A stretch of 52,224 nucleotides of DNA from Candidatus Omnitrophota bacterium (GTDB taxonomy: Bacteria; Omnitrophota; Gorgyraeia; VGKN01). Shown here piece by piece: positions 15,617 to 43,657 of this stretch; the first letter of the stretch is position 1; every line of letters starts with the position of its first letter. The notes beneath the pieces were generated by a model. It had not been told where the DNA came from, searched no databases, and saw only the letters and a list, made by a program, of their open reading frames with translations. The translations under genes and the position numbers were made by a program. The DNA lies in NCBI GenBank assembly GCA_020052955.1, contig JAGVOB010000137.1:1-52224 (forward strand), written 5' to 3'.

Positions 15617-15658
15617 TTCCCATATTGGGAATATACATCATACAGTATAGATTGTCAA
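15617..15658 (-). promoter_or_regulatory. Sigma70-like promoter with overlapping palindromic operator upstream of higB
   Basis: Read on the minus strand: TTGACA (plus coordinates 15653-15658), 17-nt spacer, TATATT (15630-15635). The palindrome TTCCCA-tat-TGGGAA (15617-15631) overlaps the -10/+1 region. Confidence 0.45.
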
Positions 15659-15697
15659 GATATTTTTTTATCCATCTCTTATATTTATAGCGCACTT

Positions 15698-16616: not shown

Positions 16617-18431
16617 ATGAATGAATTAGAAAAAGAAAATAAAGAGCTCTTAACGACCATTGAGAAATTACAAAGACAAGTTAAGGCGCTAAAATCCAGA
16701 AAAACATATGGGCTTGTTTGGGAGGAGGAAAAAGAACCCGAACAAGTAGTTTTGGACTGTCAGCATAAAATCCCAATTCTAAAAGAGGTAAAAATAAAAG
16801 ATATTGACTCAAGAGGAATCCTTCCAACAAATTTCATGATAGAGGGTGACAATTACCACTCATTATCGGTTCTGAACTACACACATAAGGGTAAAATCGA
16901 CTTAATTTATATTGACCCCCCTTATAATACTGAATCTAAAGAATTTGTATATAATGATAAATACATAGATAAAGAAGATACATATCGGCATAGTAAATGG
17001 TTAAATTTCATGAAAGCAAGATTAAGCTTAGCAAGAGAGCTTTTAAATGCTACTGGTGCTATTTTTATCTCAATTAATGAAAATGAATTTTGTCAATTAA
17101 AATTACTTTGCGATGCAATATTTGGGCCATCTAACTATATGTCTACCTTTACGATAAAAGTTAGGCACGAAGAGAGAATTTTAAAGGGTGATAAAGATTT
17201 TCATGAAGTAGTCGAATATTTATTGATGTATCGAAAAACCCAAGAATACATCACTACAAAGAGAATTAGGGATAATACTTCCAACCAAGAATATGTTTAT
17301 GAGATCCAAGAGTTGATTAAGAAACCTAAACATATCGAACTTGGCTCTAAAAAGGTTTTTGTTTTCAAGCCAGGACAATATAAAATCATAAAGGGCGCAC
17401 CTGACGAAAAGAAATTAAAGAAAATCAATATTCGAGGTAGTATTAAGGAAGGTAATAGCAGTGGAAGATTTTATATGGCTCATCTCGAGAAAAAGAGGAA
17501 AGACATTGCTTATCTATACAAAGTTCCCAATATGGGTGGTGATGGCCTTGGTTACAGGTATTTTTTAGCTCCTACTTCTGAAAAAAAATCTAATGGCGAT
17601 TACTTTCAAGGAGTACCCCAAGATAGATCTGATGTGAAAGAAATCCCTTATCCCAACTATTTTGATTTTGAAGAAGATTTTAATAATGTTGGATATGAAG
17701 GAGAGGTGGATTTCAGAAACGGTAAAAAGCCCATCAATTTTATTATGAAGGTATTTGAAATGGGCGGATTAATTAATAATAAAAACGCCCAAATCGTAGA
17801 TTTCTTTGCAGGTTCAGGTTCTACGGCGGAAGCCTTATTAAGACTAAATGCGGTTGATGAGGGAAAAAGACGATTTATTATTTGCACAAATAATGAGGTA
17901 GAATACAAATCCGATCAAGAATTGAAAAAGCAAGGATACAAACCAGGAGATAAAGAATATGAAGCTGAGGGTATTGCTCAAAAAAAGTGTTATCCGCGAT
18001 TAAAAAACATTATAAATGGATACGGCGATTATAAACCATTGTCATTTAATTTAAAGTATTTTAAAACAGTTTCATTAGATATAGACCATATCTCGCATGT
18101 TTCCGACGAGCAAAAAATAAATTTGACTCACAGAGCAGGCGAAATGATTGCTTTAAGAGAAGATACTTTTGAAGAGGTTGAGAAAAATGAGTATTGGCAG
18201 GTATTTAAAAACAGAATGAAATATACGGCAATTTATTTTAAGGAAGACAAATTGAAATTAAATGAATTTACTAAAAAGTTAGGGAATCTAAAAGAACCGG
18301 TCGTTCTTTACATTTTTAGTTGGGGCAAAAATGAATATAAGAACGAGTTTACAGAATATAAAAATATAAAGGTTGAGGATATACCCGAACCTATTATTGA
18401 TGTTTATAAAGAAGTAAATCGTTTGAGCTAG
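16617..18431 (+). CDS. mod: Type III R-M DNA methyltransferase (Mod, N6-adenine beta class)
   Basis: Motif IV DLIYIDPPYNT precedes motif I VDFFAGSGSTAEA. The res gene follows after 6 nt. Confidence 0.85.
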   Translation: MNELEKENKELLTTIEKLQRQVKALKSRKTYGLVWEEEKEPEQVVLDCQHKIPILKEVKIKDIDSRGILPTNFMIEGDNYHSLSVLNYTHKGKIDLIYIDPPYNTESKEFVYNDKYIDKEDTYRHSKWLNFMKARLSLARELLNATGAIFISINENEFCQLKLLCDAIFGPSNYMSTFTIKVRHEERILKGDKDFHEVVEYLLMYRKTQEYITTKRIRDNTSNQEYVYEIQELIKKPKHIELGSKKVFVFKPGQYKIIKGAPDEKKLKKINIRGSIKEGNSSGRFYMAHLEKKRKDIAYLYKVPNMGGDGLGYRYFLAPTSEKKSNGDYFQGVPQDRSDVKEIPYPNYFDFEEDFNNVGYEGEVDFRNGKKPINFIMKVFEMGGLINNKNAQIVDFFAGSGSTAEALLRLNAVDEGKRRFIICTNNEVEYKSDQELKKQGYKPGDKEYEAEGIAQKKCYPRLKNIINGYGDYKPLSFNLKYFKTVSLDIDHISHVSDEQKINLTHRAGEMIALREDTFEEVEKNEYWQVFKNRMKYTAIYFKEDKLKLNEFTKKLGNLKEPVVLYIFSWGKNEYKNEFTEYKNIKVEDIPEPIIDVYKEVNRLS

Positions 18432-18437
18432 TAAAAT

Positions 18438-21191: not shown

Positions 21192-21815
21192 ATGACGCGC
21201 ACAAAAAGGCAAAAATGGGAGTTAGATGAAAGCAAGTTCCTTACAAGGAATGAGGTAAAAAGATTAAGACGTATTTGTAGACGTAGAAGCAAAGTTCATA
21301 AGGTAGGAGTTAGGGATTTTTTAATTATTGATTTAGGACTATATTGTGGGCTGAGAGTGCAGGAAATAGCAGATTTAAAAGTGGGAGATATTCTGATAAG
21401 CGATGAGCGGTCGTCATTAATAGTCCGCAATGGAAAGGGTGGCAAAAGACGGGTTGTTCGTTTCAATGGGGAATTCAAGAAACACTTTAAGGATTATTTA
21501 AATTGGAAAGTGGCAAATAAGGAATGGGTTAAAGAGGAAGACCCATTAATTATTTCAAGTAATACAGGAGGACATTTAAGTAAAAGGGCCGTACAGCGTG
21601 CTTTTGAACGTTGCTCAAGACTGGCAGGAATAGATGGACATAGTTCGCACCATTTAAGACACACATTTGCCTGCCATTTCTACAAGGCTAGTGGATATAA
21701 CCTTAGGGCCGTGCAAAAGCAGCTAGGACACTCAAATGTTAAAACCACCCAGATTTATGCTGACGTATTTAATGAAGATGTGGAGCTAGCACTGGAGAAA
21801 TTGTATATGAATTGA
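21192..21815 (+). CDS. Small tyrosine recombinase (catalytic domain only, Xer/invertase-like)
   Basis: GLRVQEIADLKVGD (Arg I), HHLRHTFACH (H-x-x-R), LGHSNVKTTQIYA (His/Tyr). Confidence 0.8.
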   Translation: MTRTKRQKWELDESKFLTRNEVKRLRRICRRRSKVHKVGVRDFLIIDLGLYCGLRVQEIADLKVGDILISDERSSLIVRNGKGGKRRVVRFNGEFKKHFKDYLNWKVANKEWVKEEDPLIISSNTGGHLSKRAVQRAFERCSRLAGIDGHSSHHLRHTFACHFYKASGYNLRAVQKQLGHSNVKTTQIYADVFNEDVELALEKLYMN

Positions 21816-21970: not shown

Positions 21971-22066
21971 CCGGGATGAGATTTGCTTAGCCCCTTTTTT
22001 GTTGGGGAGAGAAAGAGAGTTCTGAATGGATTGTTTAATGTTAATTTTAGAGAAAGGAGACATCCT

Positions 22067-24322
22067 ATGAGAACGTGGAAAATATGGGTTGTGATTCTGA
22101 TGTCGGTAATAATAATTACAGGTTATGGTGGATTCTGCAAGAAGGATGATAAGAATAAAGATACTATCGCCGGGAGTAGCGCACCTGCTCCAATTACTGT
22201 TAAACAAGCAATGACCGATCCAAATGGTGAAGCATATTTTACAGATAATTCAACTGGTGCGCCTGTAATAATAAAACCTCAAGATAGTGATACTCTGTTA
22301 CCTCTCGCAGGTATTAGCGTTACATTTTATGATGGTGATGGGTCAGAAATCTTTATGTTGAGTGACCCTACTAAAAACTATCTTCCTTCTATGGGCGTCT
22401 ATACCAGCAATTCTGAACATATTATAAAAATGGGAAAAGTGAGCGGAGGCGCTTATCCGGGTACCTATTATGTAGCACGTATTGATGATGAAGAAAGAGG
22501 GAGTGCCTTATGGAGTTGGGAAAATGCGAACCATATGGGGCACAAAGATATTACTTATATAAAAACAATTAATTATAATGAGACCCAAGAGATTTATGAA
22601 AGAACTGAGACAATAATCAAAGTGTGTTGGATAGTGACCGGGAAAGTGGTTACCTGGCTTTTTGGAATAAACATTCCTTTTTCCCCAGTTGACCTTATCA
22701 ATACAATCGCTCCAGAAGACCCAAATCCTCCCCAGCGATGGGATATGTACACTACTCAAGAATCTGGGGGAACTTCATATACGCATCTTATTCCAAGCAA
22801 TGTCCCTGAAGTATCAATAACTTCTTTGACTGTAGATGGTGCTAATATATCTGTCTTATGGCAGGGTACTGATAGAACTACTTACCCTGATGATCTTTAC
22901 TATACTAAACCCGTGCCTGATAGAGAGGACCTTACGGTCGCCCTGGGTCCAACTGGTAATCCCGACATTATGTATAGTTATAGAATAACAAACACTTCAA
23001 CTGGAAACGTATATTTTGATTGGACAACATGGGAATTGAGTAAAATTTCTGTCGAAATATTTTCTATACCCTATGGAAATTACCGCTTTGAGGTAAAAGC
23101 ACAAGATGAGGTAGAAAATGTATCAAATATAGAATTACAAAATTTCTCGGTCACAACCGAAACCATAAGTACTTCAAATCAACCAACCGGCATAACTTCG
23201 GGTGATATTGGTACAAGTTACGATTATTCTACGGGCGGTTCATCTTCTAATTTAGAACATACAGTACAGTATCAATTTGACTGGAAGGGGGATGGAACTG
23301 ATCTTTCTGTCTGGGGCTCTGCCACACAATCAAAAACATGGTTTTCGGGTGGCACTTATTCTGTCCGGGCAAGGGCTCGTTGTACCACTCATACCACAGT
23401 CGTTTCTGATTGGTCGTCAGGACTATCGGTTACTATATCGTCTCCACCAGCTGTGGATGACTACGTCTGGGTTGCAAATTGGGGTAATGGTACTGGTAAT
23501 ACTGTCACCCGCATCAAGAAATCAGATTTAAGCACAACCGCGATTACAGTAGGAACTGGTCCATTTGGAATTGCGGTAGATGAGACTTATTGCTGGGTGA
23601 CAAATAATAATTCTAATAATGTCACACGCATCACGAAGTCCACATTAGCCACGACCAATATTACAGTGGGAGGTAACCCCAATGGAATCGCGGTAGACCA
23701 GACCTATTGCTGGGTAGCAAATAAGGGTTCTAATAATGTTACACGCATAACGAAGTCTACGTTAGCCACAACTAACATTACAGTGGGAAGTTACCCTGTT
23801 GGAATCGCAGTAGATGCAACCTATGTCTGGGTGGCAAATTGGGGTTCTGATAATGTCACCCGCATCAAAAAATCAGATCTAACCACAACCCAGATTGGTG
23901 TGGGAAGTAACCCCGAAGGAGTCGCGGTAGATGAGACCTATGTCTGGGTAATAAATGTTGTTTCTGTTGGTACTGTTACTCGCATCAAAAAATCTGATTT
24001 AACCACAAACCAGATTGCTGTGGGAAGTTGGCCCATGGGAGTCGCGGTAGATGAAACCTATTGCTGGGTAACAAATGGTAATTCTAATAATGTTACTCGC
24101 ATCAAGAAATCAGATTTAAGTACGACTACGATTGCAGTAGGAACTTGGCCCTATGGGATTGCTGTAGATACGACTTATGTCTGGGTGGCAAATGCTAATT
24201 CTAACAATGTCACCCGCATCACGAAATCAAATTCTGCCACGACCAATATCACGGTGGGAACGGTTCCCGATTCGATTGGAGATATGACCGGTTATGCCTA
24301 TGATAATTACAGTAACCAATAA
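22067..24322 (+). CDS. Lipoprotein with a C-terminal array of ~40-aa YVTN-type beta-propeller repeats
   Basis: Start re-set to MRTWKIWVVILMSVIIITGYGGFC (lipobox Cys) behind AAGGAG. It carries about 8 repeats of VG..P.GIAVD.TY.WV.N..SNNVTRI.KS.L.TT.I. Confidence 0.75.
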   Translation: MRTWKIWVVILMSVIIITGYGGFCKKDDKNKDTIAGSSAPAPITVKQAMTDPNGEAYFTDNSTGAPVIIKPQDSDTLLPLAGISVTFYDGDGSEIFMLSDPTKNYLPSMGVYTSNSEHIIKMGKVSGGAYPGTYYVARIDDEERGSALWSWENANHMGHKDITYIKTINYNETQEIYERTETIIKVCWIVTGKVVTWLFGINIPFSPVDLINTIAPEDPNPPQRWDMYTTQESGGTSYTHLIPSNVPEVSITSLTVDGANISVLWQGTDRTTYPDDLYYTKPVPDREDLTVALGPTGNPDIMYSYRITNTSTGNVYFDWTTWELSKISVEIFSIPYGNYRFEVKAQDEVENVSNIELQNFSVTTETISTSNQPTGITSGDIGTSYDYSTGGSSSNLEHTVQYQFDWKGDGTDLSVWGSATQSKTWFSGGTYSVRARARCTTHTTVVSDWSSGLSVTISSPPAVDDYVWVANWGNGTGNTVTRIKKSDLSTTAITVGTGPFGIAVDETYCWVTNNNSNNVTRITKSTLATTNITVGGNPNGIAVDQTYCWVANKGSNNVTRITKSTLATTNITVGSYPVGIAVDATYVWVANWGSDNVTRIKKSDLTTTQIGVGSNPEGVAVDETYVWVINVVSVGTVTRIKKSDLTTNQIAVGSWPMGVAVDETYCWVTNGNSNNVTRIKKSDLSTTTIAVGTWPYGIAVDTTYVWVANANSNNVTRITKSNSATTNITVGTVPDSIGDMTGYAYDNYSNQ

Positions 24323-24367
24323 AAAGTAATGGAAAAACATAATTCCTATGAAAAAAGGAGATGTTAT

Positions 24368-26215
24368 ATGATAAACACAAAATGGCTTAGAATAGGAATG
24401 ATTTGCCTCTTAATGGGTATTATGATGCTGGGTTTCGGCGGATTATGCAGTAAAGAAGGTGGTAATAAGGATACCACCAGTGGTAGTAGTGAACCAACAC
24501 CTCCTTCTCCCGTTACCATATCTAATCCAGTTGATGGAACAACTAATGTTTCAATTTCTGAATCATTAAGTTGGGGTTCTGCCGCAGGAGCAACATCTTA
24601 TGATGTTTATTTCAGTGTTAATATCCCCCCAATAACTCTCGTGTTTAAAACAAATACCTCTGGAATAAATTATAACCCGGGTCCTCTTGATTATAACACC
24701 ACTTATTGGTGGCGGATAGATTCCGTGAATAGTGCCGGTTCGACCACTGGTAATGTCTGGAGTTTCCAGACTGAAACCGCACCCACTACACCACCTTCAG
24801 CCCCCTCGGGTGTTTATGCTTCTGCGGGCAATCAACAAGTTACTGTAAGTTGGAATAACGTCTCCGGCGCAACTTCTTACAACATTTATTGGTCAACTGT
24901 TTCAGGCGTGACAAAAGCAACCGGTACAAAGATTAGTGGTGTTACCGGTCCTTATGTTCATACCGGCAGAACCAACGGCACTACTTACTATTATGTAGTT
25001 ACTGCTGTAAATAGTTACGGTGAGAGCAGTGAATCATCTCAGGTATCGGCAACGCCTGATACAATCCCCTCAGCACCATCAGGTGTTTCTGCTACTGCTG
25101 GCAATACTCAAGTTACTATAAATTGGAACAATGTTTCTGGTGCAACCTCTTATAATGTCTATTGGTCAACTACTTCAGGTGTAACAAAAGCGACAGGTAC
25201 AAAGATTAGCGGCGTTACCAGTCCCTATGTTCATACCGGCAGAACCAACGGCACTACTTACTATTATGTAGTTACTGCTGTAAATAGTTACGGTGAGAGC
25301 AGTGAATCATCTCAGGTATCTGCCATACCCACCGCAGGAGGCGGAACTGCCGTGGATGACTATGTCTGGGTGACAAATCAAGAGTCTGACAATGTTACTC
25401 GTATCAAAAAATCTGATTTAACTAAAACTACAATCGCTGTGGGAGATTGGCCCATGGGAGTCGCGGTAGATGAAACATATTGCTGGGTGACAAATTGGGG
25501 TAGTGGTAGTGGGAATACTGTCACCCGCATCAAAAAATCAGATTTAAGCACAACCACGATTACAGTAGGAACTGGTCCATTAGGAATTGCGGTAGATGAG
25601 ACCTATTGCTGGGTGGCAAATCAGTTGTCTGGTAATGTTACCCGCCTCAAGAAATCAGATTTAAGCACGACTACGATTACTGTGGGAACTGCTCCCACTG
25701 GAGTAGCGATCGATGTCACCTATGTCTGGGTGGCAAATGCGAGTTCTGCTAATGTTACTCGTATCAAGAAATCTGATTCCAGTAAAACCACTATTTCAGT
25801 AGGGCCAGATCCTATTGGAGTCGCAGCAGATGCTACCTATGTCTGGGTAGCAAACAGTGATACTGATAACGTCACCCGCATTAAGAAATCAGATTTAAGT
25901 ACAACCACGATTACTGTGGGAACTTGGCCCTATGGGGTCGCGGTAGATTCAAACTATATTTGGGTAACAAATATGGGTTCTGATACTGTTACCCGCATTC
26001 TGAAATCTGATTCCAGCACGACTACTATTAATGTGGGAACTAGCCCAATTGGAGTCGCGGTAGATGCTACCTATTGCTGGGTAGCAAACTCAAATCCTGA
26101 TTATGTCACTCGTATCCTGAAATCTGATTCCAGTAAGACGACGATATCGGTAGGACCTGCCCCATTTGCGCTGGGTGATATGACCGGTTATGCCTATGAT
26201 AATATTCCCCAATAA
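24368..26215 (+). CDS. Paralogous lipoprotein: FN3-like domains (two near-identical) plus a YVTN beta-propeller repeat array
   Basis: Start re-set to MINTKWLRIGMICLLMGIMMLGFGGLC behind AAGGAG. FN3-like units read PSAPSGV.A.AGN.QVT..WNNVSGATSYN.YWST.SGVTKATGTKISGVT.PYVHTGRTNGTTYYYVVTAVNSYGESS. It shares the C-terminal GDMTGYAYDN with the preceding gene. Confidence 0.75.
   Translation: MINTKWLRIGMICLLMGIMMLGFGGLCSKEGGNKDTTSGSSEPTPPSPVTISNPVDGTTNVSISESLSWGSAAGATSYDVYFSVNIPPITLVFKTNTSGINYNPGPLDYNTTYWWRIDSVNSAGSTTGNVWSFQTETAPTTPPSAPSGVYASAGNQQVTVSWNNVSGATSYNIYWSTVSGVTKATGTKISGVTGPYVHTGRTNGTTYYYVVTAVNSYGESSESSQVSATPDTIPSAPSGVSATAGNTQVTINWNNVSGATSYNVYWSTTSGVTKATGTKISGVTSPYVHTGRTNGTTYYYVVTAVNSYGESSESSQVSAIPTAGGGTAVDDYVWVTNQESDNVTRIKKSDLTKTTIAVGDWPMGVAVDETYCWVTNWGSGSGNTVTRIKKSDLSTTTITVGTGPLGIAVDETYCWVANQLSGNVTRLKKSDLSTTTITVGTAPTGVAIDVTYVWVANASSANVTRIKKSDSSKTTISVGPDPIGVAADATYVWVANSDTDNVTRIKKSDLSTTTITVGTWPYGVAVDSNYIWVTNMGSDTVTRILKSDSSTTTINVGTSPIGVAVDATYCWVANSNPDYVTRILKSDSSKTTISVGPAPFALGDMTGYAYDNIPQ
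24794..25339 (+). repeat. 273-bp tandem duplication (two FN3 units) inside the lipoprotein gene
   Basis: The period of 273 nt comes from aligned landmarks (tcagc at 24797 and 25070). About 97 nt read identical by eye at 24953-25049 and 25226-25322. Confidence 0.8.
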
Positions 26216-26367: not shown

Positions 26368-26748
26368 ATGGCTGACGAAAAACCTAAGATAACGGTTTTA
26401 GACGACGATGCAGCAATCGGCGACTTGTTAACGAAGTATTTGACTAAAAGAAATTATGCAGTCGCAAGTTTTGTAAGCGCTAAACAAGCATTAAAATACA
26501 TAGAAAACAATCCGGTTAATTTAATGATAGTTGATGTGAATATGCCTGAAATGAACGGATTTGAGGTAACCAAAGCAGTTAAAACATTGAAGCCCAATTT
26601 ACCCATTATGATTATGAGCAGTGATTGTCTCCAAGAAAGAAAGGATGAGATGGCTAAATTGGGCATCTGTGATTATATCCAAAAGCCTTTTAATCTAAAT
26701 TATCTGGAAAACAGAATCGCTTTAAATCAATCTGTCAATCATCGTTAA
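26368..26748 (+). CDS. Stand-alone response-regulator receiver (CheY-like) domain
   Basis: ITVLDDDAAIGDLL...LMIVDVNMPEMNGFEV...DYIQKPF: acidic pocket, phospho-acceptor Asp and conserved Lys. Confidence 0.8.
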   Translation: MADEKPKITVLDDDAAIGDLLTKYLTKRNYAVASFVSAKQALKYIENNPVNLMIVDVNMPEMNGFEVTKAVKTLKPNLPIMIMSSDCLQERKDEMAKLGICDYIQKPFNLNYLENRIALNQSVNHR

Positions 26749-27217
26749 AGCTTCCTGAGTCCGCCAAACTCGTATAAGAATTTTCTCCGATTATAATGTG
26801 GTCAAGAACTTGAATATCTAACAATTTCCCGCACTCTCTTAATCTCTGGCTAATCTCAATATCCTCTCGGCTTGGCGTGCTATCGCCCGATGGATGATTG
26901 TGAGTAAGGATAATTGAGGCCGCATTGCCTACGATAGCTGGCTTGAAAACTTCACGAGGACAAACTATTGAGGCTGTAAGAGTTCCTACGCTCACCACAT
27001 TTATTCCCGTCATCCTACTCCTGGCGTCCAGAATCAATACGACAAAATATTCACGATCAGCCTCAAATAAACCTTTGAAAATTTGATAGACGTTTTCGGA
27101 ACACTTGAATATCGGATATCTTTTCAATTCGTGTTCTCTGACCAGCGAGACGTAAACATTTAGTTTACTGAATTTCTTATCTATTTTTAAGCCATTAAGT
27201 CCGAGTAAGTCTTCCAT
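26735..27217 (-). CDS. radC: RadC-like JAB/MPN domain protein
   Basis: Start re-set to MEDLLGLNG behind AAGGAGG. JAMM motif ILTHNHPSGDSTPSREDI. Its 3' end overlaps the convergent receiver gene by 14 nt. Confidence 0.8.
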   Translation of the reverse strand: MEDLLGLNGLKIDKKFSKLNVYVSLVREHELKRYPIFKCSENVYQIFKGLFEADREYFVVLILDARSRMTGINVVSVGTLTASIVCPREVFKPAIVGNAASIILTHNHPSGDSTPSREDIEISQRLRECGKLLDIQVLDHIIIGENSYTSLADSGSFNDD

Positions 27218-27332
27218 AAAAATCCTCCTTAAGAAGTGAAGGAGACAGCCAAGATAATAGTATCTCAACTGCCTCCTTTATGGTTAGAAGCGGCTACTTT
27301 GATGTGAAGTGTCTTGGAAGGATGGAAAAAGG

Positions 27333-27548
27333 CTAATTCCCTTTCACTCCTCCTTGTTTGACCCACTCAATTTCGTCATCAGCCCGAACGACGGTTTGCA
27401 TATCGCTTATCTCATTAGAGTTCAGCAATACTCTCATATCATCCGAGATATTGAGCGCTTGGCGTAACCCATTCCTAGCATCGGAGATTGCTCTCCCGTC
27501 GAATGTGGTAACGTCCGTTTCGTTACACCCGCAAATAAACTTTGCCAT
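27333..27548 (-). CDS. Small ubiquitin-like (beta-grasp, PRTRC-C/BilA-like) protein with an internal Gly-Gly near the C-terminus
   Basis: 71 aa ending ...EWVKQGGVKGN. Assignment rests on size, position after the E1 gene and the GG plus 4-residue tail. SD AAGGGGGTGA. Confidence 0.55.
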   Translation of the reverse strand: MAKFICGCNETDVTTFDGRAISDARNGLRQALNISDDMRVLLNSNEISDMQTVVRADDEIEWVKQGGVKGN

Positions 27549-27610
27549 CTGTTATCACCCCCTTTCAAATTAGGCGTTAGAGTTTTAATAAGATGTGATG
27601 ATGGACAGGA

Positions 27611-28294
27611 TTACCTTTGCCGGGGCAGTGCCTTATTCCGTTCAATGTCAAAATAAACCTCAGCGTACCTCACCGGTTTCTCTGCAACGATTGTGTAAAA
27701 AGCATTCAGCATTAAACAGGCAGCGGTTAAATTGGTGAAAATGATTTGCTCTGAGCCGGATAGTCGCGCCAGTTCCTCGCAGGAAAGTTCAGCAGGATTC
27801 TTATCCCTTGGCTGGGCAATTTCCGGATGAAATCTTTCTATGGGCGGATTTCTACTTCGACCGTTTTTCTTAATGTAAACTTGGATATTGCCGTCACTGA
27901 TTTCATTCCCGCCAGAAACAAGAACAACGTCCTGCAAACGCTGGCATCGTTCAGACACAATCTTTCTTGTAGCATGATTATCCACAGCCAAGAAAACTAC
28001 GCTCTTTTCACCAATAACCTCAACTACATTCTTCTCAGTCACAAACTCAGGAATTGGCACAATCGTAAGCGTATTAAATAACGACTTGAGATAGACTGCC
28101 TGCGCCTCTGCCTTGTTTTTGGTTTCTTCCAAAGCAGAGATATTCTGCCTGACAAAGTTTTCCCTACCGTATCTATCTCCATCCACCAAGATTACCTTCT
28201 TGCAATGCTGTGTAAAGTTAAGGTATCGACACAGCACCAATGCCAGGAACGAACCAATACCACCCAGCCCAATCACGACTATTTTTCCAATCAT
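27611..28294 (-). CDS. ThiF/E1-like adenylyltransferase
   Basis: Rossmann loop VVIGLGGIGSFLA and ILVDGDRYGRENFVRQ (D-x-D...N-x-x-R-Q). There is an ATGA overlap with the JAB gene. Confidence 0.75.
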   Translation of the reverse strand: MIGKIVVIGLGGIGSFLALVLCRYLNFTQHCKKVILVDGDRYGRENFVRQNISALEETKNKAEAQAVYLKSLFNTLTIVPIPEFVTEKNVVEVIGEKSVVFLAVDNHATRKIVSERCQRLQDVVLVSGGNEISDGNIQVYIKKNGRSRNPPIERFHPEIAQPRDKNPAELSCEELARLSGSEQIIFTNLTAACLMLNAFYTIVAEKPVRYAEVYFDIERNKALPRQR

Positions 28295-29133
28295 AGTTTA
28301 ATCTCCTTTCTTTGATTGCCAAAAAGCCGTTGATTTACAACATCTTTCTCCTTGCTGTAATCAAAAAAATCACAAGGGCTTCCTGGTTCTTTAATATCCT
28401 CCTGAATGCAGACATCCTCATGAGAGCAACAAAAGCACTCATCATCCAATGGTACATTTCCCTTGTCATCTTCTGGCTTTTTGTCAGTTTCTGGCTTTCC
28501 CAATACATCTTCCCTCTCACCAAAAGGCTCTTGGAGTGGCTTTACCTTTTTGAGCCATTCCTGATTAACCATCCTAATAGGCTCATTAAGACCCTCAATA
28601 ACGCTTTCAGGCTCTAATTCAGCCCTCTTTCCGTTAATTACCACGTAACAGGCTAATTCAGGCTTAACCTCGTCAAATTTGCTCACTATAAGGTGCAGTC
28701 CGTCAAAGTTTAGCTCGTCCTGATGGTCTGTCCCAGAGGCAAATACCCCAAAGCCCGGGTGAGAATGAACGCTACCCACAACTCTCCTGTTTGTTTCGTT
28801 CTTATACTGTACCCTGGCGCCAGCCACTTCTTGCTCCGGGGCATACGCGGACCAGGTATCCTGCTCATAACATAGCAACACCATTGCTTCTGACTTGTAT
28901 TTCTGATACACGGCGTGGAAAAAGGCCAATACTTCCTTGATTAGTTCATAGGGTATCTTTTTGGCCTTTAACGCAAACGTTTCTTCCTGCTCAGGCAACG
29001 GAAGAGCGTCAATCTTGACACAGGCATCAAACAACTCATTCTTCTTAAGGATATAAAATCCTTCCTTAGCCACAATATAAGCATAGGGCTCATTTCCCGG
29101 GATTGGCTGCCCGGCAAAGTACATCTTTATCAT
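28291..29133 (-). CDS. JAB/MPN (JAMM) metallopeptidase, PRTRC-A/BilC-like
   Basis: Exact JAMM spacing HSHPGFGVFASGTD (H-x-H-x7-S-x2-D) with an upstream Glu (YKSEAMVLL). Strong SD GGAGGTG. Confidence 0.8.
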   Translation of the reverse strand: MIKMYFAGQPIPGNEPYAYIVAKEGFYILKKNELFDACVKIDALPLPEQEETFALKAKKIPYELIKEVLAFFHAVYQKYKSEAMVLLCYEQDTWSAYAPEQEVAGARVQYKNETNRRVVGSVHSHPGFGVFASGTDHQDELNFDGLHLIVSKFDEVKPELACYVVINGKRAELEPESVIEGLNEPIRMVNQEWLKKVKPLQEPFGEREDVLGKPETDKKPEDDKGNVPLDDECFCCSHEDVCIQEDIKEPGSPCDFFDYSKEKDVVNQRLFGNQRKEIKL

Positions 29134-29383
29134 TTTTCACCTCCTCTAATGATTTTACGAGTTCTGCCAAATTGCCAGATTCTTCAATAGCCTCAGGCGT
29201 AATACACGTCTTTTTTTGCCGCAACACCCTGACTGCCTGCGTCAAAATCAGGTCTTCTAATTTTCCACTGAAATCCTCAATCTCCTCATCAGAACGTTCA
29301 ATGAAATCCTTCAAGACATCTTTAACAGAGTGAACACTATTGGCAATAGCAACCTTTCGTATGATTTGTTTAAATATTTTCAT
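29090..29383 (-). CDS. Hypothetical helical protein within the Ubl operon
   Basis: 97-aa acidic helical ORF. It overlaps the JAB gene start by 44 nt. Confidence 0.4.
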   Translation of the reverse strand: MKIFKQIIRKVAIANSVHSVKDVLKDFIERSDEEIEDFSGKLEDLILTQAVRVLRQKKTCITPEAIEESGNLAELVKSLEEVKNDKDVLCRAANPGK

Positions 29384-29386
29384 TCG

Positions 29387-30058
29387 CTACTCCTTTTCCA
29401 GAACGTTGTCAAGACACCGGCTAAGGCTCTGGTAGGGAAACCATTCCACAGAGCAAACATTTTCTAAGTTGAGCCGTTGCCAGGTGTCAAAACAATGCTC
29501 TTCCTGGTTTTGTTTAAGCAGGGCTATCTGTTTTGGTATCTTTTCCCTGAAAAACTGGTTTAAATCAGTGTTAAAGGTTGAGGCAAAAAAGTAACCAATC
29601 AAGCTATTAATCTTTTCCGGCGCCTCAGCCGTTACGCTATACCTGAAGTCGCCCAGACAGACAGCTGAATCCGGGCTGTGGAGATTCGGGATTGGCGGGG
29701 TGAACAGTTTATCTTCGCTACTGTTTAATCTCTGGTTTCTAAAATAAAAGAAACATTTTTCAAATGCATAGTTTTCAAAGAGTATCAGGAAGTAATGGTA
29801 CGGGAAGGCCAACGTATACTCTTTGGAATGCGCTCCATTGTGGGCATAAAGCACCTTTACCATTGTAGGTTCTTGTTCTATCAGATATGCCTTTTTGTAA
29901 TCCTTTGAGGCGTAGAAAATCACGCCTTTTGGCAGGATTGGTGTTCTTAAACCGCTTGACTGAATCAAGGCATTCTTAAAGTCAGTTAATTTTACCCGCC
30001 TGACTGTAGAAACTTCCTTTAATTCAACAATACCTTCACTGATTTCAATTATTTCCAT
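29387..30058 (-). CDS. Prokaryotic E2/UBC-like protein (start re-set; the ORF-track N-terminal extension is rejected)
   Basis: Starts MEIIEISEG behind AAGGAG-6nt. FTPPIPNLHSPDSAVCLGDF resembles the E2 (H)PN...x-C-L/W-G catalytic-Cys flap of Prok-E2 families. Confidence 0.55.
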   Translation of the reverse strand: MEIIEISEGIVELKEVSTVRRVKLTDFKNALIQSSGLRTPILPKGVIFYASKDYKKAYLIEQEPTMVKVLYAHNGAHSKEYTLAFPYHYFLILFENYAFEKCFFYFRNQRLNSSEDKLFTPPIPNLHSPDSAVCLGDFRYSVTAEAPEKINSLIGYFFASTFNTDLNQFFREKIPKQIALLKQNQEEHCFDTWQRLNLENVCSVEWFPYQSLSRCLDNVLEKE

Positions 30059-30080
30059 AAACAACTCCTTTCTAAAAATA

Positions 30081-30456
30081 GGGAAGGGGCACCTCGCTAG
30101 TCCGCAACCGTAAAGCCGCAAGCGAAGCCGAGTAACAGGTATCAAACGAGGCGAGCGGGCGGCTCGGAGGTGCGGTAAGCTAATTGTGTAATATATTGAT
30201 ATTCGGGACTGACGAAGCATCAGTCCGGCTTATTCCTTGAAACAAATGGTCAGGCCACGAGATGCTATTACTCTCGTCGTTATCGTGTTATCATCAGAAA
30301 AGATTATATCCTTTCGGAAATAATGGATTCTGAAAGGCGACAGACCTATAACCCTCGTTTCGTTTCTACAAAGCATTAACCCTCGGCCCAATTTTCATCG
30401 AGATGATGGTATGGACTTAGCAAATGGAACAAACCTAAAACCAAGGTGCCCTTCCC
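30081..30456 (-). ncRNA. Candidate retron msr-msd non-coding RNA bounded by a1/a2-like inverted repeats (strand assignment tentative)
   Basis: gggaaggggcacct (30081-30094) pairs with aggtgcccttccc (30444-30456), with one bulged C. Internal hairpins lie at 30206-30226, 30257-30277 and 30310-30337. A GC-rich imperfect long hairpin at 30102-30175 abuts the 30081 repeat. No credible ORF is present. Confidence 0.5.
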
Positions 30457-30464
30457 ATGATTAT

Positions 30465-31337
30465 TTAGCAGACTTTAACCAGATTGTTTTGTAAGGCTAA
30501 CAGGTTCTTTATCTCATTCACATCCTGAACAAGTCTTTTCCCTACATCAGGATTTATGCTTTTGATAAACGAGGCCTTGCCTTGCAATTTTGCCATATTA
30601 AAGGCGGTGTTTTCCCCTTTGATTAGTTTTGTTTTGATATTATGCAACTCTGCCCTGAATTTCCTTTTCTCTTTACGAAGAATATTTGGTGTTTTATTCA
30701 CCACCACGCCAGTTACAACTTGTCTATTGCCGTTTCTCATCACAAGAGTCTTTGCCTTGTTAATCTTAAAGCCGGTTTCGCACACGAATTTTTCAACAAT
30801 AGGCAGAATCATGTTCAGTTTGGTGTCCCTCGAAGAGAAAATCATATCGTCAGCGTATCTTGTGTAAGCGGTATTCCTCATGGAATCTGTCCATCTCTTA
30901 GCCAGTCCTGCCAGGCGATAATCCAGTTTCTTCAACACCATATTCGATAAGAAAGGGCTGGTAGGTGCTCCCTGAGGCAGATATGCGTTAACCCCATTGT
31001 TAAGAGTACAAATCTCAGCAATTCTTTGGGCATCCTCTGCGCTTATTCCCTCATTCTTCAGGGCATTAAGTACATGGTCCTTGGTTATTGAACCAAAGAA
31101 ATCCTTTATATCTGCTCTGATTACAACCCTCTTATTCGTATGAACCTGCGCATTAGTTGAGATGCTTCTATTTTTTATAAACGCGTGAGCGTATTTTGAA
31201 GGACCGATTCTCCTTGCCATTAACCATCTTAAGACAGATCTCTGTAATGCCTTTAACTTTGGTCTTGGTTCGGCTATCTCCCTAAATTCACCGTTACCCT
31301 TGGGAATCTTGCGAATAATGTAACTTCGCTTATCCAT
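30465..31337 (-). CDS. Retron-type reverse transcriptase
   Basis: 290 aa with IPKGNGEFREIAEP, SISTNAQVH (NAxxH), LPQGAPTSPFLSN, YADDMIFSS (YxDD) and QVVTGVVVN (VTG). It has no maturase or endonuclease domains. Confidence 0.85.
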   Translation of the reverse strand: MDKRSYIIRKIPKGNGEFREIAEPRPKLKALQRSVLRWLMARRIGPSKYAHAFIKNRSISTNAQVHTNKRVVIRADIKDFFGSITKDHVLNALKNEGISAEDAQRIAEICTLNNGVNAYLPQGAPTSPFLSNMVLKKLDYRLAGLAKRWTDSMRNTAYTRYADDMIFSSRDTKLNMILPIVEKFVCETGFKINKAKTLVMRNGNRQVVTGVVVNKTPNILRKEKRKFRAELHNIKTKLIKGENTAFNMAKLQGKASFIKSINPDVGKRLVQDVNEIKNLLALQNNLVKVC

Positions 31338-31381
31338 AAATCACCCCCTTTTTTTCTCTGTTTTATTGGTTAGTTCATCTT

Positions 31382-31693
31382 TTAATAATCCTCAGGCTTC
31401 ATGTAAGTAAATCCTTCTCCATTCCAGATAACCCAAATCTTGTCTTTCGAAATGACTCTAAGTTTCATATATGGTGTATCCTCCGAATCTGGTTGCCTGA
31501 GCAATTCCAATCCACGATTAACTAAATCCTTACGTTTCTGCTCATCTTCATAACCTTCCTTGAAAAGATTCGCAGTAATCACAACAGACTGATTTCCGAT
31601 AAAACCTACCGGAACTAAAATCCCATCCTCGATCGCTTGTTTCCTAGTGTAGGTGTATATGACTTCCGGCTCATCTTTATTATTCGTGTTCAT
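31382..31693 (-). CDS. Small conserved protein of the type seen in plasmid/ICE leading regions (start re-set to MNTNNK)
   Basis: IYTYTRKQAIEDGILVPVG...IWVIWNGEGFTYMKPEDY. I recall this Y-T/S-R-x-Q-A-I-E-D-G-x-L-V pattern from plasmid-borne hypothetical proteins, but the family name is not certain. SD AAGGAG-6nt. Confidence 0.5.
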   Translation of the reverse strand: MNTNNKDEPEVIYTYTRKQAIEDGILVPVGFIGNQSVVITANLFKEGYEDEQKRKDLVNRGLELLRQPDSEDTPYMKLRVISKDKIWVIWNGEGFTYMKPEDY

Positions 31694-32317
31694 ATTTCGC
31701 TCCTTTCTTAGCTTATTTCTCAATTATAGAAGTAAAAAGTTCTGACTATATAAACTGATAGATCCAATGGAATAACCCTAAAAAGGAAGAGATACCTTCC
31801 TGCTGTAGGGTGTTATGAGCAACATCTTAGGCGATAACCTTTAATGTTTTATTTGCTCGATTGTTGTTAGTGCTTGCGCACTTTTAAGTGATGGCATTAG
31901 AATGGGTTGTGGGTTTATATATTTTATTGTGATACAAAATATATATTATGGCTTGAACTTAGGAAATGATTGGACACTGACAGGGAATATTTTGGTGTCA
32001 GTATTGGCTTTTCAGGACAGTGGAAAAACATAAGAATACCTGAACTTAGCGTACCCTAGCTCCCTCTATCAAGAGAGGCCAGTGCCGGTCAAGAAACCGC
32101 TGTGGAAAAAAGGGGGAAAGCATGCTTGAAGTTGGTGTTTAAAGGTGGTGTCTAATATGGTACCTTAGGAACCACCCCTGTTTGCTCTAACCCCAAATCC
32201 TGCATATAATTGTATAGTTTAGGGTTCCCCTAATCGCTTCGCTCGGCTTCGCCTCGCTCAGCGCCCCCCCCTGTTTAGCGTAAAGTTTATAAAGTAGTGT
32301 GTCTTATAGTTTATCTT

Positions 32318-33607: not shown

Positions 33608-35725
33608 ATGGACATAAACGCCCTGCGAGTGTTCAACTCACTCTACGATTTGGGAATAACCGAGAACGAGTTCAAAGAGGTTGAAAACGAACAAGAACAC
33701 ACAGAAAGGACAGGGCTTTCTATCAATTTAGTTAAAAAGGGCAAGATTATAGGAGTAAGCCACGACGAGAAACATCAGGTTGTAATCAAAGAAACAAAAT
33801 GCAGTATTAAACCCGCACCGAATAGCCGAGTTCTTTTTAAAACCCTGATAACTTTTGTGGAACTCCCAAAGGAAGTGTATGTTCTCCACCAGATAGCACA
33901 ATACAGGGCTTTGGATACCGACATAAAGTATATTGCGAATAATTTAGAGGAACTCAAAGACAGGATTTGCGACAGGTTTATTGATGAGTATCCTAAAGAA
34001 TTAGGCAGTATCTATGATGAGGCGTATGACGATTTTGACGAAAGAGAAAAAAACAAGATATTAAAGGGAAAGGTTGCAGAGGAACAACTAAAGGCACTTT
34101 TTTGGTTGTTTGACGAGGACTATCATACATTCGAGCCGACAGAAGCGAGGGAAAATATAGCGAAAATCGTCAAGGTATTCTCCCGCAACAACAGAAGGTT
34201 AGCCATAATCCAAACCAACGCAAATTGGAAGAAGCAAAGAGGCGGATTTTTCAAGGCAAGACGGACAGAACAAATAAAGAGAACGACATTCAAAATAATA
34301 ACATTCACGCCACGAGATAGGCAATACAATTATGTCTGCCCAAACAGAGAGGTTTATATTAGAGAGTATGGCGGAAACTCTGATATTTGGCTTGATGAAG
34401 ATTTAAGCGGAAAAATAACCGCCACAGAATTGGGAGTGCTGTCGAAACGATTAAAAGAAGGATTTGTGTTTCTAACTGCTGACGAGTATAACAACCAGAA
34501 ATCAGGGATAAGAATTGAATTGATGAGTGCCAAGCGAGAGGAACAAGAGCAACAGGCAAGGCATACTTTGGTTAAGTCCATTCAAAAGCAGTTTGGTAAG
34601 GGGAAAGTAACAAGGCAGGGCATAACCTTCACCAAGAACAGCGTAAGTTACGAAAGAATTATTTTAAAGGGCAGAATGATAGGCGAGTATCTTTGCCAAC
34701 AGAGTATAATCTTACAAGAACGTCCTGACTTCAACAAAATCTTTGAGGGGTATGTTGATTATCTTTTAAATTATGAAATCAGCCAAGACATCTATGGAAA
34801 TTCCTTGATTAAAGGGTGTCGGTTTACGGGTAAAGAGATAATAGAGATAGGAAAGATAAAAGTAATTCTCGAGGAAAGAAAAAATATCCTGTTTATCAAT
34901 AACCACAGGATACGCAAAGAGGACATAGGAACGACGATAAAAAGAGCAATCAATTACAATAGCCAAGAGCAATACAACGAGTTTGTTTCTGATACGAGCA
35001 AAGTAAATCTTGCTTTCCAAAAAATTCTGACGCAAGGCGGGGTTAGTTTCAAGTTAAAGATAGACAAGACAAATGATAATTGCCTGATGACAGAAAAAGA
35101 CGAGGCAAATATACTTCTGTCAATCCCGATAGTGAGAAAAGATAACAAGAACTACGCCCAGATTGACGGACAGGAATACAGAATTAGGGACACAACCGCC
35201 CTGCTCGATTTAGGAAAAGATATTGAAAGACACCGACTACAAGGTGGTTATTTGCAAAGGACAATCAAACTGCTGTATCGGGCGATTGAGGGAATAACTC
35301 ACAAGGAAATAGGCGAATTAATCAGAAATGGTAAGACAGAACACGAAAAAATGATGACGAGAATTAAACAAGAACAGGAAGCCAAACTGAAACGAAGCGA
35401 GGAATTTCTTGCTCACGCCGTAAAACTCACTCACGCAACGAGGGTTAAGAATGGTTATTTTGTGAAAGGATTAAACTGCATTACCTATTATGTCGGTGAT
35501 GATTTGGGAGTATGGACAATCAAAGGTGGGAAGCAGGAAAAATACCTCTGCATAATTGACATAAACAGCGAGAGAGAAGACAAGGCAGGGAAAAACGATT
35601 GTATCGCCAAGAGGTTATTGGCGTTGTCAAAAGACAGAGTGGTGGCAAAAGAAATTTATGAACAAGGCGACAAAATGGATAGTTGGTGGAACGAAATCCA
35701 AGAACCTTGTAGGGTGGTAGCATAG
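33608..35725 (+). CDS. Large hypothetical protein, first gene of the coupled 705aa-E1-Ubl-89aa-ATPase string
   Basis: 705-aa ORF with no motif recognised by eye. Its stop is immediately followed by the E1 ATG. Confidence 0.55.
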   Translation: MDINALRVFNSLYDLGITENEFKEVENEQEHTERTGLSINLVKKGKIIGVSHDEKHQVVIKETKCSIKPAPNSRVLFKTLITFVELPKEVYVLHQIAQYRALDTDIKYIANNLEELKDRICDRFIDEYPKELGSIYDEAYDDFDEREKNKILKGKVAEEQLKALFWLFDEDYHTFEPTEARENIAKIVKVFSRNNRRLAIIQTNANWKKQRGGFFKARRTEQIKRTTFKIITFTPRDRQYNYVCPNREVYIREYGGNSDIWLDEDLSGKITATELGVLSKRLKEGFVFLTADEYNNQKSGIRIELMSAKREEQEQQARHTLVKSIQKQFGKGKVTRQGITFTKNSVSYERIILKGRMIGEYLCQQSIILQERPDFNKIFEGYVDYLLNYEISQDIYGNSLIKGCRFTGKEIIEIGKIKVILEERKNILFINNHRIRKEDIGTTIKRAINYNSQEQYNEFVSDTSKVNLAFQKILTQGGVSFKLKIDKTNDNCLMTEKDEANILLSIPIVRKDNKNYAQIDGQEYRIRDTTALLDLGKDIERHRLQGGYLQRTIKLLYRAIEGITHKEIGELIRNGKTEHEKMMTRIKQEQEAKLKRSEEFLAHAVKLTHATRVKNGYFVKGLNCITYYVGDDLGVWTIKGGKQEKYLCIIDINSEREDKAGKNDCIAKRLLALSKDRVVAKEIYEQGDKMDSWWNEIQEPCRVVA

Positions 35726-36301
35726 ATGAAAATCTTACAGATAGGTTGCGGTGGAATTGGAAGTTATCTTATTTCCGAGATAACGGAGTGCTTTGAGCAA
35801 GAGCAGATAAACGCTTTCACAGATATATCCATAGCCGATAGCGATATGATTGAAATGGAACAATTAAGGTATCAGAACTTCAAGTCAAACGAAATCGGAA
35901 TGAACAAAGCAAAGGCATTAGGTAAAAGATTTGATGTCAAGGCAATAATGAAAAGAGTTGAGAAAGAAAACCAAATTAAAGATTATGACATCATTATCCT
36001 ATGTGTTGATAACGAAAAAACAAGGGAGATGGTAATAAGATACTGCCACAAGAACGACAAGGAGTTTCTTGATTTGAGGGCAACAGGCAGAAGAATATTT
36101 GCTATGCCCAAAACAACCCTTGAGGGCAACTTAAAGTTTGTGGATAGCAGGGATTGGAAAGAATATAGTTGCCAAGACGAAATGGATTTAGAAAAAGGAC
36201 TAATCCAGAAAGGCAACAAGATAGTGGCGTTGATAGGCGTTCAAATGCTACTTAATCTGTTGAGAGGACACAATAATAGAATAATAAACGAGGTAATCTA
36301 A
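35726..36301 (+). CDS. Short ThiF/E1-like adenylyltransferase (second copy in the window)
   Basis: ILQIGCGGIGSYLISE Rossmann loop; ISIADSDMIEMEQLRYQNF (D-x-D...L-x-x-Q). Only 191 aa. Confidence 0.7.
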   Translation: MKILQIGCGGIGSYLISEITECFEQEQINAFTDISIADSDMIEMEQLRYQNFKSNEIGMNKAKALGKRFDVKAIMKRVEKENQIKDYDIIILCVDNEKTREMVIRYCHKNDKEFLDLRATGRRIFAMPKTTLEGNLKFVDSRDWKEYSCQDEMDLEKGLIQKGNKIVALIGVQMLLNLLRGHNNRIINEVI

Positions 36302-41985: not shown

Positions 41986-41990
41986 AAGTA

Positions 41991-43646: not shown

Positions 43647-43657
43647 ATCGGTACTCC

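Follow-up and report, generated by a model that had tools for sequence, protein, structure and literature searches.

Finding a retron-type reverse transcriptase (RT) inside a string of ubiquitin-like conjugation genes raised the question of whether the two are chance neighbours or parts of one system. We addressed this question on a stretch of 52,224 nucleotides (nt) from a Candidatus Omnitrophota bacterium (contig JAGVOB010000137.1; the whole stretch is hereafter called the window), in which a gene string on the minus strand, at positions 26735-31723, comprises eight genes and a 406-nt non-coding gap. Read along that strand, the order is a 103-amino-acid (aa) protein, the RT, the gap, an E2-like protein, a 97-aa protein, a JAMM metallopeptidase, an E1-like enzyme, a ubiquitin-like protein (Ubl) and a RadC-type protein. 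All the genes, motifs, the gap and its inverted repeats that a first-pass annotation had listed on this strand were recovered where it had placed them. The best explanation of the results presented below is that the retron module, namely the RT with an adjacent non-coding RNA (ncRNA), is a fixed partner of a minimal Ubl conjugation cassette, the two being encoded in one operon on an element of the conjugative type.

The reverse transcriptase and its linkage to the cassette

The RT gene (30465-31337, minus strand) encodes a 290-aa protein carrying the motifs STNAQVH (NAxxH), YADD and VTG, all three of which are kept across the RT alignment, and the protein matches Pfam RVT_1 at 2.5e-21. The claim that it is a retron RT was upheld: rather than falling outside the retron clade, it had only retron RT models as its top PADLOC matches, led by RT_XIII (2.1e-81) and followed by III-A, 'other', 'outgroup' and II-A. 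A profile built from 30 clade members and compared with the PDB retrieved Ec86 first (4.8e-53) and then Ec67, Kva2, Ec83 and Ec78, all of them experimentally characterised retron RTs, in the range of 1e-34 to 5e-53, while group II intron RTs reached only about 1e-13. Judged by its sequence, the RT is of the retron type and belongs in the retron RT clade. An RT of a diversity-generating retroelement (DGR) or a group II intron was ruled out, since the profile favours retron RTs by about 40 orders of magnitude; bearing on the DGR reading, no second copy of the ncRNA or of a template was found within the window. The region also gave no maturase or intron RNA match, and a comparison with PHROGs added nothing. 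On the type XIII model the RT aligns to positions 144-426 of 469, and it is without the type XIII N-terminal extension. The clade itself is small, with about 59 clusters of 280-290 aa and 43-93% identity, almost all of them metagenomic. Among species-representative genomes (GTDB scan) an in-clade RT was present in two, a Lentisphaerae and a Victivallaceae metagenome-assembled genome; PLSDB plasmids contained no in-clade RT (the best was 37% identical), no E2 match and only distant E1 matches. A metagenome scan by RT pattern gave, among the matches listed, out-clade retrons only, which served as negative controls.

The first-pass annotation had asked what lies beside the close homologues of this RT, and inspection of their neighbourhoods for Ubl-pathway genes gave a uniform answer. 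In 13 independent in-clade loci (L001, L004-L007, L104 and L166-L172), with RTs 42-93% identical, the cassette was present every time (13/13), in the order RT, E2, small protein, JAMM, E1 and Ubl; in two of them, L167 and the truncated L104, no Ubl was detected. Flanking genes were unrelated between these loci, while adjacency and order of RT and cassette held down to 42% RT identity. The arrangement is looser in L168, where a radical-SAM gene and dnaN stand between RT and cassette and the RT is 3.6 kb away. As for the control loci fetched via other retron RTs, a match to the RT and to nothing else was obtained in 228, and an E1 match was lacking in 229 loci with an RT match. A neighbour-joining (NJ) tree placed the in-clade RTs in one group consisting of cassette-linked members only. 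Moreover, pairwise identities of the RT correlated with those of E1, E2 and JAB (r = 0.93, 0.91 and 0.84, respectively; 0 of 2000 Mantel permutations reached the observed values), and for the distant members only the correlation was still r = 0.62-0.76. Co-divergence of accessory genes with the RT is the criterion by which Mestre et al. (2020, PMC7736814) recognise functional association. On these comparisons, the pairing of RT and cassette is conserved and co-evolving. Chance insertion of a retron into a PRTRC cassette, which had been offered as the alternative, is ruled out by the clade-wide linkage and the co-divergence.

In one lineage only (L001 at 14500-15696, also L002 and L003), we observed a 398-aa HEAT-repeat protein encoded after the Ubl gene; in Mestre et al. 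(2020, PMC7736814), the RTs of type XIII retrons have HEAT/ARM-repeat proteins as their co-evolving accessory.

The cassette proteins and the structured RNA

Neither the E2-like protein nor the 97-aa and 71-aa proteins of the window gave a match in family searches (Pfam, NCBIfam), and their assignment came from homologues and structure prediction. The E2-like gene (29387-30058, minus strand) encodes 223 aa from an internal ATG that is preceded by a strong AAAGGAG, and its product contains PNLHSPDSAVCLGD. Nine of its 13 aligned homologues match Prok-E2_D (best E = 5e-12), with an invariant Cys134 in the motif PxPNxxxDGxVCLG, in which Pro122 and Asn125 are invariant as well. An AlphaFold2 model of the E2 from a shallow alignment had a predicted local distance difference test (pLDDT) score of 36, too poor for use, and the E2 profile found no sequence relative in the PDB, which includes BilB structures. 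The 97-aa protein (29090-29383, minus strand) is helical and fast-evolving; its gene lies between those of E2 and JAMM and overlaps the start of the latter, and a small protein is encoded at this place in most related loci. The 280-aa JAMM/JAB metallopeptidase (28291-29133, minus strand), which contains HSHPGFGVFASGTD, has an extra N-terminal domain, its JAMM domain starting near residue 88. It matched Pfam Prok-JAB and NCBIfam PRTRC_A, each at 1.6e-4 and below the cut-off, and the HxHx7Sx2D motif is kept in 18/18 cassette JABs checked. Its gene overlaps by 4 nt (ATGA) with that of the E1-like adenylating enzyme (27611-28294, minus strand), a 227-aa protein consisting of a single ThiF domain (Pfam ThiF, 2.8e-21) with the sequence GLGGIGS; both the GxGGxG nucleotide-binding motif and Cys172 are invariant, and its relatives in the PDB are ThiF, MoeB, SAE2 and Cap2. 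As read from these alignments, the catalytic motifs of the cassette (the E2 cysteine, the E1 cysteine and nucleotide motif, and the JAMM motif) are intact.

The 71-aa Ubl (27333-27548, minus strand) was modelled by AlphaFold2 as a beta-grasp fold (pLDDT 87.3), and its top Foldseek matches were SAMP1, MoaD, ThiS and ubiquitin, with a probability of 1.00 and template-modelling scores of 0.6-0.72. Its C-terminus reads QGGVKGN, for which the first-pass annotation had proposed that VKGN is trimmed off to expose GG. This proposal did not survive the comparison of homologues: the conserved C-terminus is G-x-K-G followed by 0-2 residues, with a one-residue tail in the window protein, and conservation does not extend to the first G of its 'GG'. 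Since KG is the very end of two close homologues and of a tandem di-Ubl, processing by the JAMM protein, if needed, would remove at most the final Asn and not VKGN.

Between the RT and E2 genes lies the 406-nt gap (30059-30464), in which inverted-repeat arms of 13 nt (30082-30094 and 30444-30456; 85% complementary) close a 376-nt segment. The candidate msr-msd ncRNA (30081-30456, minus strand) has this length and is closed by an a1/a2-like helix, the a1-like 5' arm of which (30439-30456) ends in ...CTTG-G, with the last G opposite a G and therefore a candidate branching guanosine, and the a2-like 3' arm of which (30081-30099) is about 10 nt from the Shine-Dalgarno sequence of the E2 gene. Retrons of the Ec86 type have their branching G at just this place, the inner end of the a1/a2 helix. 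Further inside, a 9-bp hairpin, GGACUGAUGCUUCGUCAGUCC, followed by CGAAUA (30206-30226, minus strand) is the ncRNA element most conserved across distant loci, and a long, G+C-rich, msd-like 3' hairpin whose tip varies in length occupies 30102-30175 (minus strand).

The earlier proposal of a structured RNA bounded by inverted repeats next to the RT was confirmed by folding and by covariation. The gap folded better than shuffled sequence (z = -5.08), with 0 of 100 shuffles folding as well. Four relatives with RTs 63-72% identical have a gap of similar size, and in their alignment, with 74% column identity, RNAalifold predicted 103 pairs, 26 of them with compensatory changes. Counting of pairs found 92.5% of the cells paired versus 35-50% with slid partners (0 of 500 shuffles reached the observed value), and the 26 pairs changed on both sides compare with 4-8 in the slid controls. 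These changes are spread over the modules: the closing helix (helix 1) has 17 pairs, five changed on both sides; the 9-bp hairpin (helix 11) is 100% paired, with two compensatory pairs; and the 3' hairpin (helices 12-15) shows compensatory changes together with indels at its tip. As far as sequence comparison can tell, the gap encodes a conserved structured RNA of retron layout, a candidate msr-msd.

Distant loci have shorter RNAs (126-252 nt) built of the same modules, namely a terminal helix, a variable first stem-loop, the 9-bp hairpin with a CGAAA-like sequence, and a variable long 3' hairpin. The 9-bp hairpin motif was found in L001, L005 (both copies), L166, L169 and L170-172, and analogous hairpins of this type in L004, L006, L007 and L168. 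In most copies inspected the terminal helix has two G residues opposite each other at its inner end, C(C/T)TG-G / G-CA(G/A)G, an arrangement that in L169 takes the form TTCG-G / G-CGAA, and every related copy has a long, sequence-variable hairpin at the position of the msd-like one. The number and place of the copies differ between loci. One copy lies between RT and E2 in the window subclade and in L169; two tandem copies occupy the RT-E2 gap in L006 (10869-11278) and L007 (10868-11356); two copies lie upstream of the RT in L004 (9490-9968), where the RT abuts E2 with a 35-nt spacer; one copy stands on each side of the RT in L005 (9152-9352 and 10862-11020) and L166 (9855-9980 and 10847-11034); and L168 has three copies (about 12594-12770, 14018-14205 and 14212-14450), two of which are directly upstream of E2. 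Where a single RT is accompanied by two or three copies, these carry different long 3' hairpins. To our knowledge, several ncRNAs for one RT are unusual among described retrons. No Rfam family was found in the region at the gathering threshold or at E < 10, and the msd-like sequence, compared with the rest of the window for a possible target or an origin of transfer (oriT), gave only short matches at chance level. A home-made ncRNA descriptor was non-specific, with 928 matches in 4.8 Mb of control sequence, and was discarded.

Two further observations concern possible ncRNA copies. A perfect 23-bp hairpin opens contig L167 (1-66), immediately 5' of the gene for an in-clade RT, which in turn overlaps the E2 gene; the hairpin is either an assembly artefact of the contig end or the truncated remainder of an msd hairpin from an ncRNA lying upstream. 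In the window, the non-coding segment 31724-32296, at least 570 nt long, separates divergent operons and contains, notably at 31766-31783 and about 32235-32275, a G-run and GC-rich segment (GGGGGGGGCGCTGAGCGAGGCGAAGCCGAGCGAAGCG) as well as a same-strand match of 16/18 to the 5' part of the ncRNA (TTTTAGGGTTATTCCATT, E of about 16); the match could be the remnant of a second copy or simply chance.

Known systems and the readings of the pairing

The unit resembles described retrons on one side and described bacterial Ubl pathways on the other. Among the retron types I-XIII of Mestre et al. (2020), the RT comes closest to the models of type XIII (myxobacterial Mx162-like, clade 10) and III-A. Like retrons, the unit has the RT motifs of the retron clade, an adjacent ncRNA with an a1/a2 helix, a G at the helix end, msr-like stem-loops and a long msd-like hairpin, and accessory genes that co-diverge with the RT. 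Unlike in the typed retrons, the partner is an E2/JAMM/E1/Ubl pathway and not a nuclease, nucleoside deoxyribosyltransferase, phosphoribosyltransferase, transmembrane protein, protease, TIR protein or SWIM/HEAT protein, and, unlike described retrons, the units of the window clade have one to three ncRNA copies, which can lie downstream of the RT and are up to 376 nt long, and have their place on conjugative or phage-like elements. The unit fits none of the 13 types on either count: no RT model stands out, and no described effector is present. The statement in the first-pass annotation that these types include no Ubl module proved right, as the paper nowhere mentions ubiquitin, ThiF, JAB or RadC (PMC7736814); nor does a 2026 retron survey of SPIRE. 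In the literature searched, no paper relevantly joins a retron with PRTRC, Ubl, JAMM or ThiF, and no functional study of a 6D/PRTRC cassette was found. Within that literature, the unit is apparently both an undescribed retron variant and an undescribed partner of 6D cassettes.

On the side of the conjugation genes, kinship to PRTRC and Bil had been proposed, of which the first part stood as a distant kinship and the second did not stand. Iyer, Burroughs & Aravind (2006) described a type '6d' operon, carried on mobile elements, which comprises a Ubl, an N-extended JAB, an E1, an E2 with the cysteine and without the classical histidine, and a fast-evolving small alpha-helical protein. The window cassette has the same five components, its 97-aa protein corresponding to their 'novel alpha-helical protein' and its E2 family to Pfam Prok-E2_D. 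Also like 6D/PRTRC cassettes, which are carried on plasmids, integrative and conjugative elements (ICEs) and phages with ParB and RadC as frequent neighbours, in-clade cassettes have ParB beside them in L005 and L169. Unlike PRTRC, the window proteins stay below the family cut-offs (PRTRC_ThiF 44 bits versus 144.75; PRTRC_A 21.3 versus 101.8), no ParB is present in the window, and the retron RT and ncRNA are absent from the 6D/PRTRC descriptions found. The other PRTRC protein models, PRTRC B, C, E and F, had no NCBIfam match among the E2, the 97-aa protein and the Ubl of the window. By its sequences, the cassette is best described as of a distant PRTRC-like, or Iyer 6D (Prok-E2_D), type.

Like Bil (BilABCD, Type I/II), the cassette has separate Ubl, E2, JAB and E1 genes and no E3, and like the Type II Bil pre-Ubl (PMC10557695) its Ubl has a conserved Gly and a short non-conserved tail that is presumably removed by the JAB. 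Unlike in Bil, which has neither RT nor ncRNA, the E1 is a protein of 227 aa and one domain and the E2 is of another family (Prok-E2_D), and these two differences rule out identity with Bil. With Type II CBASS (cyclic-oligonucleotide-based antiphage signalling system) Cap2/Cap3 and with Bub (6E) the cassette shares E1/E2-type chemistry, a JAB peptidase, and contexts of conflict or mobile elements. The window E1 matched the PADLOC 'E1-E2' (Cap2-like) models weakly and in the adenylation domain only; unlike Cap2, an E1-E2 fusion that conjugates a CD-NTase, the E1 and E2 of the window are separate, and no CD-NTase was found. Bub has a Ser-E2, a Tyr-E1 and a DUF6527 protease (PMC11601596), all three of which are absent from the window unit.

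By analogy with characterised retrons, the unit may be a tripartite retron in which the complex of RT and multicopy single-stranded DNA (msDNA) acts as sensor or regulator, with Ubl conjugation as the output, a reading to which we give an even chance. In the mechanism that we infer, from msDNA synthesis through the coupling of the modules and the direction of control to the targets and the biological role, the RT would start from the 2'-OH of the G that ends the a1/a2 helix, copy the ncRNA's 3' hairpin and so form an RT-msDNA particle. The JAMM protein would trim the one-residue tail of the Ubl and expose the conserved terminal Gly of GxKG; the E1 would adenylate this Gly, possibly form a thioester on Cys172, and then hand the Ubl to Cys134 of the E2, which would transfer it to lysines of the targets. 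The RT-msDNA particle, again by analogy with characterised retrons, would restrain or direct the conjugation machinery, and perturbation of the particle by a phage or a competing element would switch Ubl conjugation on; the JAMM protein may also reverse conjugation.

Several findings weigh against this explanation. Scanning IMG/VR with the E1 profile yielded 80 loci with E1 proteins of 37-48% identity, of which 79 have no RT and one has an RT within 10 kb, while a JAMM gene adjoins in 78 and an E2 was detectable in 31. Basic activity of the cassette cannot, therefore, depend on the retron, and the idea that the Ubl module is a retron-specific effector arm had to be given up; the cassette is an autonomous module, widespread in phage and mobile-element contigs, and the retron a lineage-specific add-on. 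The co-divergence of RT and cassette may simply reflect co-inheritance on one element. No toxin-like effector was found in the unit. No PADLOC retron type is clear for the RT, which scores 272 bits with type XIII versus 225-240 with III-A, II-A, 'other' and 'outgroup', and with NCBIfam retron_St85 it reaches 225.3 bits, just under the cut-off of 235. The position of the ncRNA is atypical and variable (downstream of the RT in the window, upstream in L004), its 376 nt are long for a retron ncRNA, and its recognition in distant loci came from minimum-free-energy folds, shared motifs and inspection rather than from a calibrated model, the MAFFT alignment of the distant copies being too poor for a covariance model. 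Finally, in several relatives the unit stands not in a cargo island but amid backbone and establishment genes (ParB, DnaN, ArdC, RadC, relaxase and type IV secretion system ATPases), so that a function benefiting the element fits at least as well as host defence.

This last point leads to the rival that survives best, namely that the coupled unit works for the mobile element, helping it after transfer to establish itself, to counter defences or to compete with other elements, and not for host defence by abortive infection. In such a version the msDNA could act as a cofactor, or could distract or inhibit the nucleases or defences of the host, and proteins of the host or the element could be modified by the Ubl cassette soon after entry. 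The window is indeed an element of the conjugative type with Replic_Relax, TrwB/DUF87, AAA and HerA-like ATPases and integrases; the RT and cassette run co-directionally among ParB, DnaN, anti-restriction ArdC, RadC and Prim-Pol genes in L005 and L169; 6d operons ride on mobile elements (Iyer et al. 2006); and 6D-type cassettes abound in phage-like contigs, including that of a cultured Bacillus jumbo phage. Mobile elements, however, carry true defence cargo too, as does the window with its type III restriction-modification (R-M) system, PLD nuclease and nSTAND NTPase; the unit showed no protein domain known from anti-defence, neither an oriT nor a leading-region position is established for the window, and the characterised retrons and bacterial Ubl systems (CBASS type II, Bil) are all defensive (PMC7736814; PMC10557695). 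We consider service to the element possible, though clearly not the likelier outcome. That retron and Ubl pathway are functionally coupled, either as sensor and output of a tripartite retron or in the service of the element, seems to us quite probable.

If the two are merely independent neighbours on a shared element backbone, the retron would be two-component or would have an unrecognised effector, such as the DUF6573-like protein encoded by the first gene of the string (31382-31693, minus strand; 103 aa from ATG, or 113 aa from a TTG at 31723). The match of this protein to Pfam DUF6573 has E = 0.005, below the cut-off; homologues of 66-81% identity are encoded just 5' of the RT in L001, L170 and L172, and in L169 a clear DUF6573 protein follows E1, and a gene of this kind goes with the RT in the window subclade and L169 but is missing from most in-clade loci. 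The autonomy of the cassette elsewhere would agree with independence, and genes inherited together on one element should co-diverge in any case. Against this stand the persistence of the order of RT and cassette to 42% RT identity between completely different flanks, the place of the ncRNA inside the operon, and the L168 copies, which stay with E2 though the RT has moved. We regard independence as unlikely, also in view of several separate groups of retron-type RTs beside 6D cassettes, which are hard to square with a single ancestral synteny.

These other groups, 31-42% identical to the window RT and in some cases N-terminally extended, adjoin Prok-E2_D/JAMM/ThiF cassettes on large phage-like IMG/VR contigs. 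The RT is directly upstream of E2 in L216 (9998-13820), L239 (10130-14233) and L245, and upstream of JAB and E1 in L208 (9902-14686) and L229, with which L231 is listed; in L173, L175 and L181 the cassette lies 2-4 kb upstream of the RT. In a rough NJ tree they do not join the core clade, which suggests that retron RTs were recruited to cassettes recurrently, the deep branches of that tree being unreliable. Strong hairpins were seen upstream of the RT in L216. Cassettes without a retron RT offer related cases. On the Cytobacillus plasmid NZ_CP065512 (L253, 4771-9463), E2_D, JAB-like and ThiF genes are followed by those of an RNase H-like RVT_3 protein, a DNA-binding protein and RadC; the RVT_3 protein carries the annotation 'reverse transcriptase-like'. 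There are hints here of a recurrent association of 6D cassettes with enzymes that act on RNA/DNA hybrids. The cultured Bacillus jumbo phage vB_BauM_KLEB27-3 (L254, 5458-7708) has a PRTRC_A-like and ThiF pair, and one of the 80 IMG/VR loci encodes radical-SAM, an 861-aa E2_D, JAMM, ThiF, a ThiS/TGS-like Ubl, a second ThiF and RNA polymerase beta'.

A different role for the nucleic acid was also weighed, in which the msDNA, alone or in its particle with the RT, would give the Ubl pathway its specificity or serve as its substrate; this we hold to be improbable. In one version the variable 3' hairpins would fit as nucleic-acid 'adaptors' that recruit DNA- or RNA-binding targets to the E2, a role that suits the loci because they have one to three ncRNA copies with different hairpins. 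In another, the Ubl would be ligated onto the RT-msDNA complex, by analogy with the CD-NTase and Cap2. The same low probability attaches to the RNA being a cis-acting leader or regulator of the E2 operon, or the template of another RT class (like those of the defence-associated RTs DRT2 and DRT9), instead of a classical msr-msd: the RNA is long and downstream of the RT, Rfam gave no retron match, the 3' arm in the window ends about 10 nt before the E2 Shine-Dalgarno sequence and two L168 copies lie directly upstream of E2, far from the RT, but both L004 copies are upstream of the RT with only 35 nt between RT and E2, the L005 and L166 copies flank the RT on both sides, the a1/a2 helix with its unpaired end G and long 3' hairpin is the defining retron layout, and the RT is of the retron clade and not of a DRT/UG type.

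If the proposed pairing is right, it would constitute a new retron type with an enzymatic protein-tagging partner in place of a toxin and would widen what retrons control, joining two active fields, retron immunity and bacterial ubiquitin-like conjugation. The 6D/PRTRC-like cassette has been known since 2006 and is often met on plasmids, ICEs and phage-like contigs; its having a partner of its own in an RT and ncRNA suggests that the 6D pathway deals with nucleic acids and opens it to genetic tests. Should the msDNA prove to be its specificity element or substrate, this would be nucleic-acid-programmed protein tagging and the first functional handle on the 6D/PRTRC systems of plasmids, ICEs and jumbo phages. 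A compact RT of 290 aa with several natural ncRNA variants is also of possible interest for retron-based production of single-stranded DNA.

The surrounding element and neighbouring genes

The last gene of the string encodes the RadC-type JAB (26735-27217, minus strand; the open reading frame (ORF) reaches 27268 from a TTG), which matches Pfam RadC at 4.5e-41 and has the HNHPSGDSTPSRED motif. The first-pass annotation had counted it as a member of the cassette, a place that it loses on comparison: among the related loci RadC adjoins the unit in L004 and lies elsewhere in L169, with no match in the others, and it is an inconstant neighbour of the unit. Converging on it is a lone response-regulator receiver gene (26368-26748).

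The backbone genes that characterise the window as an element of the conjugative type lie at 7351-9411, 10658-11785, 21192-21815 and 38708-45391 and encode a HerA/DUF87 ATPase, two tyrosine recombinases, a coupling-type TrwB/DUF87 ATPase, a Replic_Relax relaxase-like protein and an AAA ATPase. In L005 the unit is flanked by this gene set as well. None of the window ORFs that were scanned contained a ParB domain. G+C content is 39-46% at about 21-47 kb versus 31-36% in the outermost flanks of the window. Defence-type cargo comprises a Beta_protein and an M78-peptidase/HTH protein (12956-15311), the PLD-family nuclease (15846-16415), the type III R-M system with an N6/N4 methylase and a Res helicase (16617-20795), and the nSTAND NTPase (48997-51927).

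Upstream of the string, in the opposite direction, a divergent operon (33608-36301, plus strand) consists of a 705-aa ORF without family match and a second, 191-aa E1-like gene of the ThiF family (35726-36301). It was rejected as a part of the unit, as it is not kept beside the unit in related loci; in the IMG/VR locus L257, however, the cassette too is followed by a second ThiF gene (11856-12716). On the other side of the string, at 21983-26215 (plus strand), two large paralogous secreted proteins of 779 and 628 aa with fn3-like modules are encoded, which contain many copies of a repeat of about 40 aa (...YVWVAN..S.NVTRIKKSDL.T.TI.VG..P.G[IV]AVD...); from their sequence, these repeats probably form a beta-propeller.

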